A stretch of 64,000 nucleotides of DNA from positions 512,001 to 576,000 of the forward strand of contig CAWEJX010000008.1 in the NCBI GenBank assembly GCA_963809485.1, in the 5' to 3' direction. The DNA comes from an uncultured Acidobacteriota bacterium. Lineage in GTDB: Bacteria; Acidobacteriota; UBA6911. This document shows positions 1,672 through 30,262 of this stretch, one piece after another; position 1 is the first letter of the stretch, and every line of letters begins with the position of its first letter. The notes below the pieces were generated by a model. The model worked only from the letters and a program-made list of their open reading frames with translations. It had not been told where the DNA came from and did no database searches. The position numbers and the translations under genes are program-made.

Positions 1672-2175
1672 ATGGTTAAGAGACTGCTAATTGCATGCTT
1701 GATTGCGTTGCCCGTAATTCAGGTTTCAGGACAGGAGAAGGCACGGCCTAATAAGCAGGAAATCATCAATCTAATGGTCCAGGGCCGGCAGATGGCCGCT
1801 GCCGATCGAGACAGCGCTCTGGCGAACTGGCAGGACCCGTCCGCAAGCAAGGCAATCCGCGCCGATTTCATGAAATGCACGGGCCTTGCCTACCTCGGCA
1901 ACTACAAAGCCCAGGCTTATGTGGCAGCCAGCTATGAAAAAGCAATAGGGATTGTCGAGGATCAGTTGGAGTCTTATGTGTGGTACGCCGTCGCGCTTGA
2001 AAACGCCGACGCCGACAAGGCCGCTAAAGAAAAGATCCAGGCCTCCCGCGCGCGCGTCTATGAAAAGCTGCATTCGGTCTACCCTGCCCCGAGCGACGAG
2101 GACCTGGAAGATCTGGTAAAGGTCCAGAAAAACCGGATCGCGCAATACCATGAAGAGGCCAACAAAACAAAGTAA
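1672..2175 (+). CDS. Secreted hypothetical protein with SEL1-like helical repeat
   Basis: GGAGG RBS, signal peptide, AQAYVAASYEKAIGIVEDQLESYVWYAVA resembles a Sel1 repeat. Confidence 0.7.
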   Translation: MVKRLLIACLIALPVIQVSGQEKARPNKQEIINLMVQGRQMAAADRDSALANWQDPSASKAIRADFMKCTGLAYLGNYKAQAYVAASYEKAIGIVEDQLESYVWYAVALENADADKAAKEKIQASRARVYEKLHSVYPAPSDEDLEDLVKVQKNRIAQYHEEANKTK

Positions 2176-2193
2176 GAGGAGAAAGGATTCACG

Positions 2194-3375
2194 ATGCGCT
2201 ACCGCAAAATGGGTAAAACGAATGTCGACGTTTCGATTCTGGGATTTGGCGCCATGCGGCTGCCGATGGTGGGCAACCCGACAGGGATGGCCGGATTCGA
2301 CCCGAACGTGCCGATCGACGAAGTCCATGCCACAAAAATGGTCGAACACGCGCTGGAAAGCGGCGTCAATTATTTCGACACCGCCTACGGGTATCACGGC
2401 GGCCAGAGCGAAAAATTCATGGGGAAAGTCCTGAAGAGCTATCGCTCCAAGGTGATGATCGCCACCAAACTGCCCCCCTTCATGGTTGAAAAGCCCGAGG
2501 ACATGGAGAGGATCTTCAACGAGCAGCTCGGCAAGCTGCAAACCGATTATCTGGACTTCTATCTTCTTCACGGCATCGACAGCGTTTCCTGGAACAAGAT
2601 GAAGGAAATGGGGGCCCTGGAATTCCTGGATCAGCTGCGCTCGAGCGGCCGCATACGCTTTGCGGCTTTCTCGTTCCACGACGAAATCAAAGCCTTCAAA
2701 CAGATCGTCGACGCCTACAGCTGGGACATGTGCCAGGTCCAGTTCAATTTCTACGACCAGATATACCAGGCCGGAAAGGAAGGCATTGCCTACGCCGCTT
2801 CGCGCGGCCTCGGAGTCGTGGTCATGGAGCCGTTGCGCGGCGGAAGGCTCACCGACAGGATTCCGGCCGAGGTTCAGGCGCTGTGGGACAGTGCAAAAGT
2901 GAAAAGAACGCCGGTGGACTGGGCTATGAACTGGGTCTGGAATCACCCGGAAGTTTCTCTCGCGCTCACGGGCTCAAGCACCCTCGAACAGCTCAAGGAA
3001 AACGTGCGCGTCGCCAAGAATGGCGCGGCGGGTCCCTTCACGCCCGAGGAATTCGCTCTGGTGGACCGGGCGCGCGCGGAATACCGCAAAGGGCTCAAGG
3101 TGGACTGCACCGGCTGCGGATATTGCATGCCCTGCCCGAACGGCGTGAACATCCCGCAAAACTTCTCGCTTTACAACGATGCATTTCTGTTCCACAGCAT
3201 GGAACAGAGCAAGTTCTTCTACAACCGATTCCTGAAGCCCGACCAGAGGGCTTCGGGCTGCTTCGAGTGCAAGATTTGTGAAGACAAGTGCACGCAGAAG
3301 ATACCCATCATCAAGGAGCTCAAAGAGGTCCACAAGGCTCTTGGAGAAGAACAGCCCGCCGGAGGCAAAAAATGA
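2194..3375 (+). CDS. Aldo/keto reductase with C-terminal 4Fe-4S dicluster
   Basis: LGFGAMRLP, YFDTAYGY, IATKLP, MEPLRGG; CTGCGYCMPCP and CFECKICEDKC. Confidence 0.95.
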   Translation: MRYRKMGKTNVDVSILGFGAMRLPMVGNPTGMAGFDPNVPIDEVHATKMVEHALESGVNYFDTAYGYHGGQSEKFMGKVLKSYRSKVMIATKLPPFMVEKPEDMERIFNEQLGKLQTDYLDFYLLHGIDSVSWNKMKEMGALEFLDQLRSSGRIRFAAFSFHDEIKAFKQIVDAYSWDMCQVQFNFYDQIYQAGKEGIAYAASRGLGVVVMEPLRGGRLTDRIPAEVQALWDSAKVKRTPVDWAMNWVWNHPEVSLALTGSSTLEQLKENVRVAKNGAAGPFTPEEFALVDRARAEYRKGLKVDCTGCGYCMPCPNGVNIPQNFSLYNDAFLFHSMEQSKFFYNRFLKPDQRASGCFECKICEDKCTQKIPIIKELKEVHKALGEEQPAGGKK

Positions 3376-4088
3376 CCGATCAAAAAACCATCGACACCGT
3401 GGTGAAAGCTCTCAGGGCCAACAATTTCAAGCCCGTCGAATATGTGGAAAAAGCCAAGGACGCCGTTCCCCTGATCCTGGATATGATTCCGGCCGACGCC
3501 AGCATCGAGATGGCGGGCTCCGTGTCCATCTCGCAGCTCGGCCTCCTGGACATGCTCAGGCAGCGCGGAAACAAGGGCCTGGATTTTCCCAAGCCCGGAG
3601 AGTCCATGCTTGATTTAAGCAAGCCGCGCAAGGATGTCCTGCTCGTCAGCACGAACGCGGTCACCATGGACGGGAAGCTGGTCAACACCGACGGCATGGG
3701 AAACCGCGTAACCGGGATGGTCTGGGGAGTGAAAAAAGTCATCCTGCTGGTTGGGGCCAATAAGATCGTGAGAGACGTGAATGAAGCTATGGACCGCGTT
3801 CAAAACACGATTTCGCCCTACCACGCCAAGCACATCGGGCTCAACACTCCCTGCGCCTTGACGGAGGCCTGCAGCGACTGCGACTCGCCCTTCCGCATCT
3901 GCAACATCACGACCATCATCACCAAGAAGCCGCCCGCAGTCGATTTCGCCATCGTCCTCGCAGGGGAGGACCTCGGATTGGGATGGGATCCTGACTGGCC
4001 GGAAGAGCGCATCGAAAAGATCAAGGCGGCGTATCAGACAGAAATGGAAAAGTTCCGGGCGTCCATGCCCCCGCCTCCGAGAAGATAA
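3372..4088 (+). CDS. LUD domain (LutC/YkgG-like) protein
   Basis: STNAVTMDGKLVNTDGMGNRV, GANKIV, PCALTEACSDCDSPFRIC; ATGA overlap with the AKR stop. Confidence 0.9.
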   Translation: MTDQKTIDTVVKALRANNFKPVEYVEKAKDAVPLILDMIPADASIEMAGSVSISQLGLLDMLRQRGNKGLDFPKPGESMLDLSKPRKDVLLVSTNAVTMDGKLVNTDGMGNRVTGMVWGVKKVILLVGANKIVRDVNEAMDRVQNTISPYHAKHIGLNTPCALTEACSDCDSPFRICNITTIITKKPPAVDFAIVLAGEDLGLGWDPDWPEERIEKIKAAYQTEMEKFRASMPPPPRR

Positions 4089-5197: not shown

Positions 5198-5343
5198 CCC
5201 GGGTCAGCATTCGGGATTTCAGTGGGCGTCCCTCGGCGTAGGTCGGCGTTACGAAAGTAAATGCCATCCCTTCCAATTCCCGCTATGATAGGCGGCAACC
5301 GGCCTGCGCCGGCTCACAAATCCATAAATAAGGGGAAAATAGC

Positions 5344-8427: not shown

Positions 8428-8574
8428 GATGTCCTCCTTGTCGGGTTAATAAAATGTAGGATTGCACCCCTCCCTCTCTCAGATCCGATAAAAGCAAAGA
8501 TTTGTCGCATCTTAACACGAAACATAAATTGATTGTCTGATTTTGAAAATACTATGCCGTCCTCAGTCGATCAT

Positions 8575-9071
8575 GGGCCAGGGGCAGCGATCTCTATCAT
8601 CTTGTGGGGCACCTTACGGAACACGCCTGGGCGGCTCCGAACCTCGAGCTTCTGAATGCTGCTTTGGAACAAACGAGTTGGGATGGGCCCCGCCTAACAA
8701 AAGCCGTTTGGCGGAAACAGCTAAGGAATCGAGTCAGGCATCTCCTGCAAAGCCGGAGGCTTGAATGACTGGAACTGCTCAAAGCGGTTGGAGGAGTTAC
8801 GCCGGTCTTGAACGCTGACTTACGCCGACCCTCGCCGAACAAATCGGCGTTTGTCAGCGTATCTCAGCGTTTCAAAATACGGAGCTGTCAAACTCTATGA
8901 GTCCCCCGGCAGAGCCTTTTCGAGTCACGCCGCCGTAGACGGCGGTTTGCCTTAAGGCGAATCGATTCCCTTGACTGGGAGAAAGCCCGAGCTGATGTTA
9001 AACCGTTCCTGGAACGCGATCGGGACCTGGATTTAGTGTAGAACGACGTCCTTATCGGTCTCCTGAAATGA
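8575..9071 (+). pseudogene. C-terminal remnant of an AbiEii-type nucleotidyltransferase toxin, interrupted
   Basis: Manual translation: ..GSDLYHLV..APNLELLNAALEQTSWDGPRLTKAVWRKQLR [insert] RIDSLDWEKARADVKPFLERDRDLDLV*. Confidence 0.6.
8733..8916 (-). mobile_element. Non-autonomous IS200/IS605-like mini-element, copy 1
   Basis: Reverse complement of 11760-11983; end hairpins and TGAC-type end; left hairpin truncated. Confidence 0.7.
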
Positions 9072-9203
9072 TTTGGCTCTCATTTTCCTCTCCGCATTTG
9101 TACCGTCCCCGATGGCCACTCTCCCAATATTCTTCAAATCGGCCGTTACAATGGCGGAACGGCGGGCAAACTCCTTCCGTGCTCTCCGGCCCCCCTGCTA
9201 TCG

Positions 9204-9779
9204 CTATGCCTTGGGCTCCTTCGGCGGCTGCCCTATTCGGGAATAGGTACTTGTCAGCATGATCTCCAGGAAAATGAAAGGCTTATTGATTTTGGTGATC
9301 GTGATCGGGCCATGACTCAGAGCCTTAGCTACTGATATGACGGTAGGTACGTTAATGATATGCTTTTCCTGTTCCTCGCCGAGGCAGACTTCAATTTCCG
9401 CGTCAAATTCCCGGCAGTTCATAGGATCGGTACTAAGGAAACCCAGGACCTGTCCGAAATCGTGTGCGTGCGCCGGCCCGGGAACGACAAATCCCGGCTT
9501 GTAGAACACCTGGTGAATCATGATGCAATCAGCCATGAGCTGTTGGGAATTCACTGAGATAGATTCCATTTGAGCGCGCTTCACGTAGGGTTCTTTGATT
9601 ACGTATTTTCCGTACTTGCCGCTATCCGTATAGCCTGCGGGTGGTTGGCTTTTGGGAACCGGACTGCTTCCGGGCTGCTGAAAAGCCGCCTCCAGATTGA
9701 CCGGAGGAATAACGATTCCAGCTGCGGGGAGAATAAGTCCTGACTGCAGAAATGCCCTGCGCGATGATCTGTTTTTCAT
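9204..9779 (-). CDS. Cupin-like protein with twin-Arg leader
   Basis: AGGAGG RBS, SRRAFLQ, HAHDFGQVLGF...GEEQEKH...LSHGP. Confidence 0.75.
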   Translation of the reverse strand: MKNRSSRRAFLQSGLILPAAGIVIPPVNLEAAFQQPGSSPVPKSQPPAGYTDSGKYGKYVIKEPYVKRAQMESISVNSQQLMADCIMIHQVFYKPGFVVPGPAHAHDFGQVLGFLSTDPMNCREFDAEIEVCLGEEQEKHIINVPTVISVAKALSHGPITITKINKPFIFLEIMLTSTYSRIGQPPKEPKA

Positions 9780-10072
9780 AATACCTCCTGTTTTCGAGCT
9801 GTCACAAAGAACGCTGGCTTCTGACTTCCGCATGCGATTTGGGGCGGGAGATCCAGGGCGCAGCCCTTACCTGGGTGTTTATCCGAAACTCAACACCCAG
9901 CAACCATTGAGAGGGCAGCCACAGGACACTCGCCCTTACAGCATTGTCCCTTCCAGATTCAGCAATCGGGTGGCCTCCACGATTGAGGGCTGCTTCTTTT
10001 GTACCTCCGTCATTGCGCCGACACAAGATAAATCGTTGGCGGATGGTGGGATGTGATAGCCCTCCGCATAAT

Positions 10073-10396
10073 TCAACGAATCTGTGCAGCGCGCCGCGTC
10101 CAAGCGAGAATAGCTTCTCGAAGCGCCGCATGCAGACTCAATCCCTTTTCCTTAGCCCGTTCTTCCAACAATGCCCAAATAGCTGGAGGGAAACGAACCG
10201 ACCGTGGAACCGTTCCGCCGGTTTCAAGCACTTTCTTCGGACGCCCCCGTCCAACTTGAACCGTAATTCCTTCAGCTGAGATCCGTTTCGCGTAGGGATT
10301 TGGCCGCACATGAGCTTTTGAGAAATCAATCTCAGGCATTGCTTGAAGCGATGCCTTTGATGGCTCTCTTTGATGTTTTTTAGCTGCCTTCTTCAT
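10073..10396 (-). CDS. BrnA/CopG-like antitoxin
   Basis: MPEIDFSKA..NPYA, GRGRP, RSVRFP ribbon-helix-helix; overlaps brnT stop. Confidence 0.75.
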   Translation of the reverse strand: MKKAAKKHQREPSKASLQAMPEIDFSKAHVRPNPYAKRISAEGITVQVGRGRPKKVLETGGTVPRSVRFPPAIWALLEERAKEKGLSLHAALREAILAWTRRAAQIR

Positions 10397-10649
10397 ATTG
10401 TTTCCTTTCATGGGCTGTGGCGCGACGAGCGCTAATAATTCGGATATCATGACCGTCAATCTCTATGAAAACAACCAGGAGCACCCGTTGTTTGATGGAC
10501 TCGCCGATCAATATTGCGCGGTCGCTGTGAATATCATCTGTTACCATCAGCGCTAATGGATCCCAAAAGACTGTAACCGCTTCTTCGAAGGCGATGCAAT
10601 GTTTGCGCAAGTTAGCGATGGCCTTGTTCGGATCCCATGTAAAATGCAT
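10380..10649 (-). CDS. brnT: BrnT family toxin (DUF497)
   Basis: FTWDPNKAIANLRKH.IAFEEA..VF.DP, IRIISARRAT..ER..Y. Confidence 0.92.
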   Translation of the reverse strand: MHFTWDPNKAIANLRKHCIAFEEAVTVFWDPLALMVTDDIHSDRAILIGESIKQRVLLVVFIEIDGHDIRIISARRATAHERKQYEEGS

Positions 10650-10742
10650 GAATTAAGTGTAATACACTAATGGATTATTTTTCAAGCGTGGAAGGTAGAC
10701 TCAGTATCATCGGCTTTATTGACAATCCTAAGGGAGGTTAAA

Positions 10743-10820
10743 TGGTACGCCTGGCAGGGTTCGAACCTGCGACCTTCGGTTCCGGAGACCGACGCTCTAG
10801 TCCAGCTGAGCTACAGGCGC
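10743..10820 (-). tRNA. tRNA-Arg(CCG)
   Basis: GCGCCTG acceptor stem, TAGCTCAGCTGGA D-arm, TCGGT-ctCCGga-ACCGA anticodon arm, GGTTCGAA T-loop, encoded CCA. Confidence 0.97.
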
Positions 10821-10879
10821 ACTTTCAGACTGCTTATAATTACACGGCTACTTGCCTTCTTGCAAGCCGCCTGAAATAA

Positions 10880-10938
10880 AAAACGCCACGGACATCACGG
10901 ATTAAAAAATGTATAATCCGTTCAATCCGTGGCGTTTT
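10880..10938. repeat. AAAACGCCACGG palindrome, copy 2
   Basis: AAAACGCCACGGA / TCCGTGGCGTTTT with inner CGGATTA / TAATCCG; lies between divergent genes. Confidence 0.85.
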
Positions 10939-10958
10939 GCTTATGGGGAGGAGTATTT

Positions 10959-11552
10959 ATGGAAAACAGCAGCCGAAGGAAATTCGTTAAAGACATTACG
11001 GCAATGGCCGCTGTCGGCGCATTGTCCTGCCTGGAAACAGCCCGGCCGGCCGAAAAAGGAAACACTGAAGCGATGGTCGCGCCGTGCGGGCTTTATTGCG
11101 GAGCCTGCCCCATGTACCTTGCGACGCGGGACAACGACCAGCAGAGAATCGATGCCATGCTGAAAATGTTCAACGAGAGGGATCCGAAGCTGACCATGGC
11201 CGACGTGAAATGCGACGGCTGCATCGCCGGGGGCCGCGTCGCCTGGTATTGCCGGCAGTGCGGCATGCGTGAGTGCGCCGAAAGCAAACCGAATGTCACC
11301 CGCTGCCCCGATTGTTCCGAATTTCCCTGTTCCAAAGTCACCAATTTCAACAACGACGGCATGCTGCACCATGCAGAGGTGCTGGAAAATTGCCGCCGCC
11401 TGCGGCAGGTTGGAATCAAGGAGTGGGCGAAACTCGAGGCGGAAAGATGGAGCTGCCCTAAGTGCCACGCGAGCATCGCCTGGTACGACGCTTCCTGCCC
11501 AAAGTGCAGCGCGCCGCGCTCCGAGCGCCTTTTCGCCCTAAAAAAGGCCTAG
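10959..11552 (+). CDS. DUF3795 Cys-rich protein with twin-Arg leader
   Basis: GGAGGAG RBS, SRRKFVK, APCGLYCGACP, CDGC, CPDCSEFPC, C-terminal CPKC..CPKC. Confidence 0.88.
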   Translation: MENSSRRKFVKDITAMAAVGALSCLETARPAEKGNTEAMVAPCGLYCGACPMYLATRDNDQQRIDAMLKMFNERDPKLTMADVKCDGCIAGGRVAWYCRQCGMRECAESKPNVTRCPDCSEFPCSKVTNFNNDGMLHHAEVLENCRRLRQVGIKEWAKLEAERWSCPKCHASIAWYDASCPKCSAPRSERLFALKKA

Positions 11553-11553
11553 C

Positions 11554-11572
11554 CAGGGGGCTTCGCCCCCTG
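11554..11572 (+). terminator. Short hairpin after the DUF3795 gene
   Basis: CAGGGGG-cttcg-CCCCCTG; weak U-tract. Confidence 0.45.
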
Positions 11573-11660
11573 ATATCCCCCCGCGCGCGACACCCGATGG
11601 AATTCGAAGCCATCAAAACGCTCTCTGGGTATTGGAAGCCAATGGTCAGAGTAAATTTTT

Positions 11661-11693
11661 AACTGGGAACTCTGAACTGGAAACTGGGAACTG
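11661..11693. repeat. Heptamer tandem repeat (AACTGGR)n
   Basis: aactggg aactctg aactgga aactggg aactg. Confidence 0.7.
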
Positions 11694-11744
11694 ATTTTCC
11701 CAATAGAAAGCCGCGGATTCCGGAAAATACAAAACATCCTGCTA

Positions 11745-11984
11745 ATTACATTGGAAAAACCCCCGGCTCTGCCGGGGGACTCAGAGAGTTTGACAGCTCC
11801 GTATTTTGAAACGCTGACGTACGCTGACATGACGCCGACGTACGCTGAAAAAATATATAAATTTTTTTCGGCGTGGGTTGGCGTCCGTTCAGCGTGCGTC
11901 GGCGATCAAGACCGGCGTAACTAGTCCAACCGCTTTGAGCGGTTCAAATCTTTCAAGCCTCCGGCTTTGCCGGAGGCACCTGAT
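11745..11984 (+). mobile_element. Non-autonomous IS200/IS605-like mini-element, copy 2 (both ends present)
   Basis: Left hairpin CCCCCGGC-tct-GCCGGGGG, internal ACGCYGA / TCRGCG inverted arrays, AACCGCTTTGAGCGGTT, right hairpin GCCTCCGGC-ttt-GCCGGAGGC; no transposase ORF. Confidence 0.75.
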
Positions 11985-12215
11985 ATCGGCAAATTTCGGT
12001 TTTTGGCATCCGCGGCTCCCTTTCATTCTCTCCTAAGATCCCTCTAATCAGACTCCGATAGACAAAAATCCCTGTTTGGCTTAGGATGCTTGCACGGCAT
12101 AATAAATTTTTTGTGCCCTACCCCCCTTGAAATACAAAAGCAAAGATGCGCGAAGACTGCAATGGCACTGTCGTCGATTTGAGCCGAACACGCACAATAT
12201 GGAGGCAATTGTTCT

Positions 12216-15200
12216 ATGAACCGGATTCGTTTCATCGCCTGCGCCGCAATTTTACTATTGGGGCTCATCGCTTTTTCCCTGCGCCTTCAGGCCGTCGACG
12301 GCAGCTGGACACTGCTGGCCTGGAATAATCTCGGCATGCACTGCATGGACTCGGATTATTCCATCTTTTCCATTCTTCCTCCCTATAACGTCGTCAATGC
12401 CCAATTGATCGATGCAAACGGCAAGCTCCTTCGAAATCCCGCAGGGGTCACCGTGACCTATGAAGCGGTCCTGGATCCCGACGGTTCGATCAATTCAACA
12501 TCGGCAGGCAAGACCAACTTCTGGAACTACGTCGCCAGCTTTTTCGGTATTTCGCTGCCGGTCGACGCCGGCCTTGCCGGATTCAACATGCCCGGCTTGC
12601 AGAACGTTCCGCAAGCCATGGCCTATGATCCGGCCATTGGCGGATTCACGGCCGACGGCGTTCCCGTAACCCCCTTTGACAACGCCGGCGTAAAGAACTT
12701 TTATCCCCTGTTCCATCTGGTTGCCCGCAACACCTCCGGAAGCATACTGGCGACAACGGATGTCGTGCTTCCAGTTTCCGATGAAATGGACTGCCGCTCC
12801 TGTCACGCCTCCGACTCCTCTGCCGCTGCCCGTCCGTCTGCCGGCTGGATCCATAATCCGGATGCGGAACGGGATTACCGGCTGAACATCCTGCTCAAGC
12901 ATGACGAGCATATTGGCAATTCTGCTTTATACCGGAACGCCCTCGATACCGCCGGTTATCGCCAGGATGGATTGTATGCAACGGTCACACAGGGCGGCAC
13001 GCCAATCCTTTGCGCCCGTTGTCACCGCTCCAACGCGCTGCCCGGAACAGGACTCAGCGGCATCGCGCCTCTGACGCAGGTGGTTCATTCGCTGCACGCC
13101 ACCGTCACGGATCCGACCAACGGTCAGACGTTGAACAGCAGTTCCAACCGGACGGCATGCTATCGATGCCACCCCGGCTCCGAGACTCGCTGCCTGCGCG
13201 GTGCCATGGGGATGTCGGTGGACTCCGGCGGGTCCCTGGCCATCCAGTGCCAGAATTGTCATGGATTGATGAGCGCGGTCGGTTCTGCAAGCCGTGAAGG
13301 TTGGCTCCATGAGCCGGCATGTCAGAGCTGCCATACCGGAACTGCAACCCAGAACAGCGGCCAGATCCGCTATACATCGGCATTGGACTCCAACGGGATC
13401 CCGCGCATAGCCGCCAATAACACTTTTGCCACGAATGCGAATACTCCTGCCGCCGGGCTTTCGTTATATCGTTTCTCCAAGGGTCATGGGAGTCTGCAGT
13501 GCTCGGCTTGCCACAACTCCACCCATGCGGAGTTGCCGTCAACCGTCCGCAATGACAACATCCAGAGCCTGCAGATCCAGGGGCACACGGGCACAATTTC
13601 CGATTGCATCAACTGTCACAACACCCAGCCGCGCACCGTGACCGGTGGGCCGCACGGGATGCATCCCGTCGACCAGCAGTGGGCCAATGGTCATGAAGAT
13701 GTGGTCGAAAATAGCGGATCGTCCCAATGCCGGACCTGCCACGGCACGGACTACCGCGGCACAGTGCTGTCACGATCGCTTGGGGACCGCGATATTTCAA
13801 CCGAATTCGGGGTAAAGAAGTTCTGGCGCGGCTTCCAGACCGGCTGCTATACCTGTCACAATGGCCCGGACAGCGACGATGCCAACCGGAACCGTGCGCC
13901 GGTTGCCGCCAATACATCCGCGTCCACCACATCCGGAGTTCCCGTCAATATCTCGCTCAATGTCTCGGATGCGGACAACAACGCCCTGCAGTTGCGCATC
14001 GTGTCCCAGCCCGCGCATGGAACGGTGGCGCTCAACAACAGGACAGCCACCTTCATACCCAATGCCGGCTATGCCGGGACCGACAGCTTCACCTACGCCG
14101 CCTGGGACGGATCAACCCAGTCCAATCTTGGAACCGTCGCCCTGAACGTCGCCAGCGAATTTTTCGTCCCTCTGTATCTTGGCGATGCTAATTCCTTCAC
14201 GGGTTTTGCCGTATCGAATTTCGGGGCTGTGGGAGCCGAGGTGCAGTTCACCGCCTATGCTGCCAACGGCACAAAGCTTCCCTTCCCCGGCAACCCGTCT
14301 TCTTACATGATTGCGCCTCGGGCGCAACTTGCGCTCCTCGGCCATGAAATCTTTGGCATTCCCTTCACGACTCCCCAAAACGGATGGGTCAGGATTTCCG
14401 GCAGCGTTCCGGACGTCGGCGGCTTGTATCAAATCGGCGATTATGCGGGCCGCCTGCTCGACGGCGCGGCTGCGGATACCCAAACGGCGCGCGTTTTGAG
14501 GTTCACCAGGGTGTATGAAGGAGCGGGCGCATTTCGAGGCCAAAGCGCAAGCACATTTCTGAGCATTGCCAACCCGAATTCTGCTTCGGTCACCATAAAT
14601 CTTAACCTGCGCGGGCCTCAGTCGAATCAGGCGCTCGCCCCGCAACAGACGGTGTCCCTCCCCGGTAACGGAGTTCTCTCGGGCACTGTGGCCGAGATCT
14701 TCAATCCGACGCTGCCGGTAACGAACGGTTGGGTGGATGTCCAGGTAACTGCCGGGGACGGGGTGGCAGGTTTTGAAATGGTCCGATTCCCCGATGTGGG
14801 AACCGTGGTCGGTCTTGCCGGAAACAGCGGCGACGCGCCCAATCAGTCCTATTCGGCCCAATTGGCGGTCACCCCCGACTATTTCACCCATCTGAAACTC
14901 ATCAACACGAGTAACCTTGCCCGTACGGTCAACCTGCACGCCGTTGCCGAGAACGGCGCGGATCTCGTGGCGCCTGTGGCCGTCCATCTCGAATCGGGAC
15001 AGTCTCTCGAACAAAGCGCAGATCAGCTCTTAGGCCTGGTTTCACCCGCTGTGGGTTCTCTGAAGGTTGATGCGGATGGTCCTGGAATCATCGGCGATGT
15101 TCTGTTCGGTGACCCGACGACGCTCACCTTTGCCGCTTCCTGCGCATTGGAGAGCCGGAAATTCAGAGCGGCCGTATTCAGCCACGTAGCCAACGATTCT

Positions 15201-15482
15201 TATTATTTCACCGGACTGGCCGTGCTCAATCCGACCAGCAGGACTGCTTCAATTACCCTGGATGTCTATACCGTATCGGGGCAGAAGACCGGATCGGTTG
15301 TGATGCAGCTCGGGCCGGGACAGCGCTTTTCGAAGCTGCTTACTGAGCTCCTGCCCGTTTCTGCAGGACAGATGAAAGGCTTCATTTCGCTCACGTCGGA
15401 TCAGCCTATACTTGCGCAGGAGCTCTTCGGCGACAAGAGCCTGAGTTTCCTTTCGGCTGTTCCGCCCAAAATTGTCCGATGA
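12216..15482 (+). CDS. Secreted multiheme cytochrome c (9 CxxCH) with cadherin-like Ig domain and C-terminal beta-sandwich repeats
   Basis: Signal peptide; CRSCH, CARCH, CYRCH, CQNCH, CQSCH, CSACH, CINCH, CRTCH, CYTCH; APVA...PAHGTV...GTDSFTY Ig-like unit. Confidence 0.92.
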   Translation: MNRIRFIACAAILLLGLIAFSLRLQAVDGSWTLLAWNNLGMHCMDSDYSIFSILPPYNVVNAQLIDANGKLLRNPAGVTVTYEAVLDPDGSINSTSAGKTNFWNYVASFFGISLPVDAGLAGFNMPGLQNVPQAMAYDPAIGGFTADGVPVTPFDNAGVKNFYPLFHLVARNTSGSILATTDVVLPVSDEMDCRSCHASDSSAAARPSAGWIHNPDAERDYRLNILLKHDEHIGNSALYRNALDTAGYRQDGLYATVTQGGTPILCARCHRSNALPGTGLSGIAPLTQVVHSLHATVTDPTNGQTLNSSSNRTACYRCHPGSETRCLRGAMGMSVDSGGSLAIQCQNCHGLMSAVGSASREGWLHEPACQSCHTGTATQNSGQIRYTSALDSNGIPRIAANNTFATNANTPAAGLSLYRFSKGHGSLQCSACHNSTHAELPSTVRNDNIQSLQIQGHTGTISDCINCHNTQPRTVTGGPHGMHPVDQQWANGHEDVVENSGSSQCRTCHGTDYRGTVLSRSLGDRDISTEFGVKKFWRGFQTGCYTCHNGPDSDDANRNRAPVAANTSASTTSGVPVNISLNVSDADNNALQLRIVSQPAHGTVALNNRTATFIPNAGYAGTDSFTYAAWDGSTQSNLGTVALNVASEFFVPLYLGDANSFTGFAVSNFGAVGAEVQFTAYAANGTKLPFPGNPSSYMIAPRAQLALLGHEIFGIPFTTPQNGWVRISGSVPDVGGLYQIGDYAGRLLDGAAADTQTARVLRFTRVYEGAGAFRGQSASTFLSIANPNSASVTINLNLRGPQSNQALAPQQTVSLPGNGVLSGTVAEIFNPTLPVTNGWVDVQVTAGDGVAGFEMVRFPDVGTVVGLAGNSGDAPNQSYSAQLAVTPDYFTHLKLINTSNLARTVNLHAVAENGADLVAPVAVHLESGQSLEQSADQLLGLVSPAVGSLKVDADGPGIIGDVLFGDPTTLTFAASCALESRKFRAAVFSHVANDSYYFTGLAVLNPTSRTASITLDVYTVSGQKTGSVVMQLGPGQRFSKLLTELLPVSAGQMKGFISLTSDQPILAQELFGDKSLSFLSAVPPKIVR

Positions 15483-15544
15483 TACAGGCAGCTACGGCTG
15501 CAAACCGGCCAGGAAACGCCGGAAATTCCGCGAACGATAGTATT

Positions 15545-15675
15545 GCTACATCACATTGGTAAATCCCCGGCTCTGCCGGGAGACCCAAAGAGTTTGACAG
15601 TTCCGTATTTTGAAACGCTGAGAAACGCTGATAAAAGCGCTGACAAACGCCGATTTGTTCGGCGAGGGTCGGCGA
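15545..15675 (+). mobile_element. Mini-element copy 3 (left end and core only)
   Basis: CCCCGGCTCTGCCGGGAGAC..AGAGTTTGACAGTTCCGTATTTTGAAACGCTGA; core matches copy 1. Confidence 0.72.
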
Positions 15676-17580: not shown

Positions 17581-17671
17581 TCGGATTAACGAATCCAATA
17601 AATAATTCAGCGTTCGTCGGCGTTTCCCTCAGCGTGAGTCAGCGTTACCAAAGCTGATGAATCCCTGGATG
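17581..17671 (+). repeat. ~90-bp direct repeat A (TCRGCGT periodic core)
   Basis: 17604-17647 is identical over 44 bp to 24905-24948; flanks similar. Confidence 0.9.
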
Positions 17672-24881: not shown

Positions 24882-24972
24882 TCGGATCAACGACCCCTAG
24901 AAAAAATTCAGCGTTCGTCGGCGTTTCCCTCAGCGTGAGTCAGCGTTATCAAAGCTGAGGAATTCCCGATGA
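24882..24972 (+). repeat. ~90-bp direct repeat B
   Basis: Matches 17581-17671. Confidence 0.9.
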
Positions 24973-27680: not shown

Positions 27681-27720
27681 TCAGCGTGCGTCAGCGTTTA
27701 TCGGCGTGCGTCAGCGTTAA
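27681..27720 (+). repeat. Four exact 10-nt-period units
   Basis: tcagcgtgcg/tcagcgttta/tcggcgtgcg/tcagcgttaa; 38/40 identical to 30223-30262. Confidence 0.9.
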
Positions 27721-30222: not shown

Positions 30223-30262
30223 TCAGCGTACGTCAGCGTTTATCGGCGTACGTCAGCGTTAA
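30223..30262 (+). repeat. Four exact 10-nt-period units
   Basis: tcagcgtacg/tcagcgttta/tcggcgtacg/tcagcgttaa. Confidence 0.9.

Follow-up and report, generated by a model that had tools for sequence, protein, structure and literature searches.

A family of about 290 hairpin-ended repeats in an uncultured Acidobacteriota genome, probably non-autonomous and derived from an insertion sequence of the IS200 group

Palindrome-associated transposable elements (PATEs) have been described from Haloquadratum walsbyi and other haloarchaea (PMC3119063). In the available part of that description they lack terminal inverted repeats, have near-terminal palindromes, do not duplicate their target and are of non-coding length; their termini are related to IS200/IS605-type transposons, small repeats are nested inside them, and copies persist where the IS200-type transposases are pseudogenes. 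The mechanism of the IS200/IS605 family of insertion sequences (IS) is known from IS608 and ISDra2, and the IS200 group, according to the available sections of PMC5027513, consists of elements of ~0.6-0.7 kb with tnpA as the only gene. Here we describe a family of repeats which resembles the PATEs in all these respects. Three copies of it lie in a 64,000-nucleotide (nt) stretch of an uncultured Acidobacteriota bacterium (the window), which is G000:C8:512001-576000 of the host assembly G000 (6.04 Mb in 21 contigs, 95.7% complete). G000 was compared with 40 related genomes, giving 41 genomes in all.

We consider it probable, at about 0.9, that these repeats are a non-autonomous derivative of an IS200-group IS (IS200/IS605 family), that is, a PATE or miniature inverted-repeat transposable element (MITE), because their ends match those of a tnpA-carrying IS200. 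The first ~58 nt and the last ~57 nt of the element match the ends of a ~640-nt IS200 carrying a tnpA for a Y1 transposase of 143 amino acids (aa). As far as the group is characterised in the available sections of PMC5027513, the likeness extends to the subterminal hairpins, the Y1 HUH TnpA that the parent carries, integration without duplication on the 3' side of a fixed tetranucleotide, and a top strand lying on the template of the lagging strand; unlike in IS200, there is no transposase inside and the interior is unrelated palindromic DNA. Compared with the PATEs in the available description, the host here is a bacterium, the parent is a tnpA-only IS200-group element and not of IS605/IS1341 type, one single family reaches ~290 copies, and the cargo is a four-unit array with a 10-nt period that also forms stand-alone foldbacks. 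A non-autonomous HUH/Y1 element with subterminal hairpins and a short target had been proposed in an initial annotation of the window and is strongly supported: a tnpA-containing element with these ends, empty-site alleles and conserved boundaries, whose lack the annotation had named as counter-evidence, were all found. The annotation had further not recognised the composite as a described one; that it is an undescribed kind of element is not supported, as gene-less IS200/IS605 derivatives with nested small repeats are already present in the available part of the PATE description (PMC3119063). The copies in the window and their parts are as follows.

11743..11746, plus strand: target TAAT to the left of copy 2, kept in the empty allele (sequence logo and metagenome joint)
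11747..11984, plus strand: copy 2, complete at 238 nt; it belongs to the short subfamily, whose central loop is AT-rich (BLAST pile-up; a metagenome contig skips exactly 238 nt)
11760..11778, plus strand: left subterminal hairpin of copy 2, CCCCCGGC-TCT-GCCGGGGG; the same hairpin stands upstream of tnpA in genome G007 and in metagenome IS200 copies
11811..11848, plus strand: left arm of copy 2, four ACGCYGA units
11868..11905, minus strand: right arm of copy 2, also of four units and in the opposite orientation to the left arm
11928..11944, plus strand: inner right-end hairpin of copy 2, AACCGC-TTTGA-GCGGTT, conserved in the IS200 right ends of genomes G002 and G007 and of the 80 metagenome loci examined
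11957..11977, plus strand: right subterminal hairpin of copy 2, GCCTCCGGC-TTT-GCCGGAGGC, 7 nt before the 3' end of the element
8733..8916, minus strand: copy 1, with an intact right end (GTCAGG at 8733 on the plus strand), a left hairpin broken at 8916 and an interior of the 216-226-nt deletion type
8907..8962, minus strand: left end of a second type of IS200, fused to the broken hairpin of copy 1, with a GCCGYC hairpin like that of the pseudogene IS200 on contig C6
~15547..~15710, plus strand: copy 3, which lacks a right end; truncated on its 3' side, it keeps the left end, a four-unit arm and the first part of the central palindrome seen in the 401-nt form

The three copies lie where the initial annotation had placed them; of its limits for the copies, only those of copy 2 enclose a complete element, and copy 3 runs further than had been given, to ~15710. 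BLASTN with the 240-nt copy gave 714 high-scoring segment pairs (HSPs) genome-wide, of which 131 extend over 200 nt or more, and this makes it a repeat family far above chance. The initial annotation is also borne out for the left hairpin, the AGAGTTTGACAGYTCCGTATTTTGAAACGCTGA stretch and the two hairpins of the right end, no open reading frame (ORF) of at least 80 aa lies wholly within any window copy, and the ACGCYGA units recur with a period of ~10 nt (spacing 10, then 10-12, then 10). The loop said to be common to copies 1 and 3 corresponds to a perfect 37-nt match (8823-8859 and 15638-15674). The supposed shared left flank GCTA..ACATTGG, on the other hand, is mainly the 5' terminus of the element itself (TAC..ATTGG), preceded in copy 2 by its TAAT target. 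Copies 2 and 3 share their left block as a 71-nt direct repeat (11757-11827 and 15561-15631, 89%), copies 1 and 2 share the right block as 95-nt inverted arms (8734-8828 and 11889-11983, 84%), and arms of 65-70 nt at 90-95% join 8847-8916 in copy 1 with both plus-strand copies. The second-type left end beside copy 1 was also matched, at 87.5% (C8:520907-520962), by BLAST with the left end of the C6 IS200. About 10 more copies of this second type of end, with the GCCGYC hairpin, were seen in the genome. In metagenome contigs of runs X1 and X4 the copy 1 region, 8560-8971, is swapped for 77 other letters.

Separate BLAST searches with the left end and the right end, counting matches of at least 40 nt, found 289 left and 284 right ends in the 6.04-Mb genome, and the matches of one 401-nt copy alone cover 86,857 bases, or 1.44% of it. 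Pairing of a left with a right end gave 169 complete copies of 170-402 nt, which were used for the length distribution, the position profile and the folding. The most frequent length is 401 nt (44 copies), with other clusters at 240, 226, 216 and 288 nt; the 66 copies of 395-402 nt have a median identity of 97.5% to their consensus and at most 99% to each other. The 401-nt form is the master, and the shorter forms are internal deletions of nested parts of its central palindromes. The consensus left end reads TAC-ATTGGTAAA, the hairpin CCCCCGGC-TCT-GCCGGGGG and then ACTCAAAGAGTTTGACAGCTCCG; the right end reads AACCGC-TTTGA-GCGGTT, a 12-nt spacer, the hairpin GCCTCCGGC-TTT-GCCGGAGG and then TACCTGAC. 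The left hairpin begins 13 nt from the 5' end and the right one stops 7-8 nt from the 3' end. There are no terminal inverted repeats, as the termini TAC ATTGGTAAACC... and ...GGAGGTACCTGAC are not mutual reverse complements. Folded as single-stranded DNA, a 401-nt copy reaches -144.9 kcal/mol (z = -17). A structure specific to one strand, with G-U/G-T wobble pairs favouring the top strand, was considered and dropped, the top strand being the more stable one in 73 of the 169 copies with a mean difference of -0.5 kcal/mol. The central ~170-nt palindrome of the 401-nt form was likewise rejected as a third free repeat, with no match lacking an IS200 end within 450 nt, and a count of the 10-mer GAGTTTGACA (615 with at most one mismatch) was not used, being by estimate near chance plus the known copies.

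The boundaries of the element could be placed from several sides. In the profile of the 169 complete copies, TAAT stands immediately to the left (T in 153, A in 146, A in 166, T in 167), CCTGA is followed by C in 162 and then by T in 133, and elsewhere in the flanks there is zero information. Alignments to a query extended into the flanks begin at window 11742-11745 and end at 11983, 212 HSPs exactly there, so that the conserved boundaries the initial annotation had called for are sharp in ~170 complete copies. Three copies are nested in other repeats that also exist uninterrupted. At two of these three sites the uninterrupted relatives have 4-5 letters (xTAAT/TTAT-like) where the filled ones have TAAT or TAAC followed by TAC...CCTGAC, with no duplication. 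A clean empty site was found by comparison with the same-genus genome G006, which reads ...CGTAAT/TAC...CCTGAC/TTGTCTG where G000 reads ...CGTAAT/TTGTCTG (slashes mark the junctions). In the public soil run X1, one contig joins window position 11744 to 11983 and skips 238 nt, with an ambiguity of 2 nt; this joint fits TAAT/ATCGG, that is, loss of 11747-11984 after TAAT. The nested sites, the G006 comparison and the X1 joint together define the unit as TAC...CCTGAC, inserted after TAAT without duplication, and empty-site alleles are thus known both from a sister genome and from a metagenome contig. The target TAAT and the 3' end ..CTGAC differ from IS608, for which the available sections of PMC5027513 give the target TTAC. 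The sequencing runs found hold at most 26% of the sampled words. In three runs, DNA depth was roughly 1,900-3,700 over the element and ~10 over the flanks.

A tnpA-bearing element with the same ends exists, as the initial annotation had anticipated; it is decayed in two related genomes and intact in many metagenome contigs. Genome G007, of the same genus, has this left end in front of an IS200 tnpA with an in-frame TGA (Pfam Y1_Tnp, E = 1e-25), after which comes a truncated right end, and in G002 a 5'-deleted tnpA lies between the same left and right ends. A scan of metagenome contigs with the right-end pattern gave at least 119 stretches, of which 80 were fetched, and all metagenome counts of loci given here refer to these 80. 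Both ends were present in order at 35 loci; 27 of the 35 have between them an ORF that shows the HxH motif and is 141 aa or longer, and measure 631-648 nt between the ends, one has a frameshifted ORF of 138 aa, and seven have none. Four of the seven, at 148-430 nt, show that gene-less relatives occur elsewhere. The metagenome IS copies have TAAT ~9 nt before GGTAAACC and a 3' end reading ..TGAC. An alignment-based scan of genome contigs with TnpA gave 560 relatives in many phyla, the 80 of these that were kept being at 71-83% identity; the scan was uninformative as a pointer to the host taxon or to the exact parent.

In the host genome, seven pairs of left and right ends lie 0.5-5 kb apart; all of them are neighbouring copies, with no autonomous element among them. 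The Pfam Y1_Tnp domain was matched at four host loci, none of which carries the ends of the element.

C6: IS200-type pseudogene with an in-frame TAG, the right end lost, and a similar left end with a different hairpin
C20: fragment
C15:225609-225986, minus strand: intact 150-aa protein with its own, different set of three hairpin repeats on both sides
C20:1132539-1133378, minus strand: Y1-like protein of 279 aa with a weak Y1_Tnp match (E = 9e-11); none of the repeat families studied here stands beside the gene

With hairpins of its own on either side, the C15 gene has an arrangement resembling that of a repetitive extragenic palindromic (REP)-associated tyrosine transposase (RAYT). The same hairpins reappear in G006, at loci L024 and L038. 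The only copy of our element within 5 kb of any of the Y1 loci is a partial one, ~3.2 kb from the C6 gene; the copy nearest to the 279-aa gene is ~6 kb away.

Among the 41 genomes the whole element was found only in G000 and in G006 (~95% identity), and its hairpin regions alone in 14 others. The pattern of the left junction was matched 14 times in 7 of 30 genomes of the genus, and besides the known G007 and G002 cases all ten loci inspected were gene-less relatives. The genus seems to be prone to gene-less derivatives with IS200 ends. Own gene-less families with IS200-type left ends were observed in G003 (L138, L141, L143), G005, G041 and G015. Of the five left-junction matches in G003, the three inspected have the same 200-nt start.

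The parent IS of ~640 nt has, after its TAAT target, a left end with its hairpin, the 143-aa tnpA, the inner hairpin, the right-end hairpin and ..TGAC, and in the derivative palindromic non-coding DNA stands in place of the gene, with ~58 nt of the left and ~57 nt of the right end kept. We infer the chemistry, the single-stranded circle and the acting TnpA as follows. TnpA provided in trans would bind both subterminal hairpins on the top strand, where this is single-stranded on the lagging-strand template, and would cut the left end 3' of TAAT and the right end 3' of ..CTGAC. A single-stranded circle would thereby be released and the donor resealed, and the circle would be pasted in 3' of another TAAT without duplication of the target. 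The family expanded to ~290 copies in the lineage of G000 and one sister species, and later decayed by palindrome deletions from 401 to 288, 240, 226 and 216 nt and down to a 42-nt relic. In the 'guide' model for IS608, the 4 nt located 5' of each hairpin are said to pair with the cleavage sites; for our element, no convincing pattern of pairing between these 4 nt and the cleavage sites was seen by eye.

The orientation of the copies is strongly uneven on several contigs: 68 minus and 4 plus on C20, 20 and 1 on C1, 17 and 4 on C4, 9 and 0 on C16, 0 and 18 on C6, and 0 and 5 on C19. On C7 the copies switch from minus to plus near 450 kb, and the sign tracks the GC skew of the contig. By local skew, 168 of 208 copies have the G-rich strand as their top strand (p = 7e-20), compared with only 1562 of 2949 crude gene predictions (53%) that are co-oriented. 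The leading strand was taken from the GC skew, replichores not being mapped. In sequence, the G-rich strand corresponds to the lagging-strand template, so that the top strand is biased towards this template, from which members of the IS200/IS605 family excise and into which they insert, according to the available part of PMC5027513. Flanking genes show no preferred orientation, with similar counts for all four arrangements (76, 75, 59 and 53), and 22 copies lie inside crude ORFs.

Fifteen loci of G006 were fetched. Insertions common to G006 and G000 occur, for example, at L007, L036, L041 and L042, and at L035a and L038 the insertion of G006 is absent from G000. At G000:C20:~734,875, where G006 has a full copy, a 42-nt relic of the left terminus and the right hairpin is found. 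It corresponds to a repeat-mediated core deletion as given for PATEs in the available part of PMC3119063, where relics of the termini alone are ~50 nt long. The family appears to be orphaned, with no cognate tnpA in the assembly. Because there are neither identical copies nor a cognate tnpA, it is probably inactive in G000 now, unless the ~4% of the genome that is missing holds a gene that serves it, or a Y1 enzyme of divergent sequence does so.

Several observations weigh against a derivation by IS200-type transposition. The cognate transposase was not found in the host assembly (95.7% complete, 21 contigs, four Y1 matches). The best host match to three metagenome TnpAs is the C6 pseudogene, at 50-56% identity and with a different left hairpin, and the G006 orthologue of this pseudogene is frameshifted before the C-terminal tyrosine region. 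No pair of 401-nt copies is more than 99% identical, so that activity may have stopped long ago. The contig of the window, C8, is mixed in orientation (16 plus, 24 minus), and the leading strand is inferred by GC skew in a draft assembly. As to the boundaries, the clean metagenome joint comes from one run only, in a contig 93% identical over the right flank that it covers; one of the three nested sites is not clean; the G006 comparisons at L029 and L035a have untidy junctions and were not used to define the boundary; and excised and never-inserted alleles are indistinguishable from contigs.

Other explanations were weighed against this origin. REPINs pair two REPs in inverted orientation and depend on a flanked RAYT present as a single copy, and our repeats, being short, hairpin-rich, intergenic and of high copy number and linked to a Y1 enzyme, resemble REPINs to that extent. 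They could then be a pair of REP hairpins kept and moved by a domesticated single-copy RAYT of the host and not the relic of an IS200. The intact 150-aa Y1 protein on C15 and the 279-aa Y1-like protein on C20 do exist in the genome, and without an intact cognate IS200 tnpA another Y1 enzyme could be responsible. However, the two ends of the element differ from each other and each is homologous to the left or the right end of an IS200, whereas REPINs have two inverted REPs; the C15 gene has its own, different hairpins on both sides, and the element has no copy closer to it than 5 kb, or closer than ~6 kb to the C20 gene. We therefore hold a REPIN to be very improbable.

We give still less credit to the idea that the repeats are structured non-coding RNA genes or terminators, selected in place and multiplied without transposition. 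The fold is extremely stable, related stand-alone foldbacks lie right at the 3' ends of genes, and short contigs of one metatranscriptome run (X17) touch the element, which may be DNA carry-over and gives neither strand nor ends. Both strands fold equally well, however (the top strand is the more stable one in 73/169 copies), the orientation is unrelated to the neighbouring genes, and the 401-nt copy had no Rfam match at threshold, matches to miRNA and isrG hairpin-like families being far below it. The sharp TAAT-linked boundaries, the empty sites and the homology to IS ends indicate transposition instead. Guide RNAs of tnpB elements end close to the 3' boundary of the element, and two conserved hairpins near this boundary would suit a derivative of an IS605-type, tnpB-linked element whose right end encodes a guide (omega or right-end) RNA; a tnpB and a small RNA from the right end had also been considered in the initial annotation. 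This we regard as the least probable of all, as none of 34 candidates in the host genome matched the TnpB domain PF07282, no Rfam family reached threshold, the 27 metagenome parents of 631-648 nt have no room for a tnpB, and the conserved right end is only ~57 nt long. Derivation from a tnpA-only IS200 thus remains our preferred reading.

The ACGCYGA arms of the element are a separate repeat module riding inside it. Arms of at least three units with a spacing of 9-12 nt number 529 in the genome, with exactly four units in 468, and no such arm was found in 1 Mb of shuffled sequence. Directly after an IS200 left end stand 257 arms and adjoining a right end 26; 129 are in foldbacks, 83 are solo and 34 belong to another repeat family, family B. 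The initial annotation had proposed that the element captured a second repeat family which also occurs free. Its separate occurrence is borne out genome-wide and by five free arms in the window, listed below; the element may have captured a foldback, or the free forms may derive from the element.

17607..17645, minus strand: free four-unit arm with no IS200 end nearby and flanks shared with 24908-24946
24908..24946, minus strand: free four-unit arm
27681..27717, minus strand: free four-unit arm, followed downstream by a context similar to that of family B
30223..30259, minus strand: four-unit arm in family B
5223..5249, minus strand: free three-unit arm

The arms at 17607-17645 and 24908-24946 have ~30 nt of common flank on each side and so belong to yet another small repeat family. 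In family B (30223-30259 in the window and 33 further loci), CCATAAATTTTA and an AT-rich stretch enclose a four-unit arm, the spacing of which is strictly 10-10-10, and the family appears to be flanked by direct repeats of ~75 nt.

Clean stand-alone foldbacks, in which four units, an AT-rich loop and four inverted units make up 88-105 nt, number 35 and cluster at C7:712-784 kb and C8:607-667 kb. There the 3' ends of core genes, for example topA, dprA and one for an EF-G-like protein, adjoin a foldback or overlap with it. In both clusters the foldbacks occupy most intergenic gaps, and ORFs often extend into the first units. Two foldbacks flanking a peptidase gene beside topA are in place in G006 and missing from the four more distant members of the genus searched. 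At locus L124, two tandem duplications were observed (1586-2264, unit of 138 nt, 4.9 copies; 13869-14787, unit of 154 nt, 6 copies), each unit being the last codons of a gene plus part of a foldback, which suggests slippage or recombination between array units.

The subfamily of copy 2, with its left end, AT-loop foldback and right end, looks like the simplest composite of element and foldback. A more far-reaching proposal, which we think unlikely, is that the four-unit arm is a lineage-specific functional module, perhaps the terminus of another foldback transposon or an array to which proteins bind in phase, and that the IS200 relic spread it to ~260 additional loci. If this were true, a single-strand transposon would have been the vehicle for the cis-sites of another element. 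Linked to it is the possibility that the family spread where the sole related IS200 tnpA is dead; either the RAYT or the 279-aa Y1-like protein, as divergent Y1 enzymes, would then have cross-mobilised it.

As for the surroundings in the window, a 1088-aa ORF (12216-15482) between copies 2 and 3 has domains of the MtrC/MtrF-like multihaem cytochrome and bacterial Ig/cadherin-like types. A search of the whole window against Rfam at the gathering score matched solely a tRNA at 10746-10820. A short repeat of the AACTGGGAACT type at 11657-11695 has 13-18 further matches in the genome, and 11549-11701 is missing from a contig of run X1.

With ~290 copies, one target TAAT and defined cleavage points, the family offers an unusually clean set of natural data on single-strand ('peel and paste') transposition, in which a strand bias above 90% on several contigs and a decay series from 401 nt to a 42-nt relic are visible. 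It is usable for mapping replichores in draft genomes of this lineage and for studying how an IS200 TnpA reads its ends. For annotation, it accounts for ~1.4% of the genome that would otherwise pass for structured intergenic DNA with no explanation. Of wider interest are the ACGCYGA arrays, which occur in at least four contexts and are found at the 3' ends of core genes.

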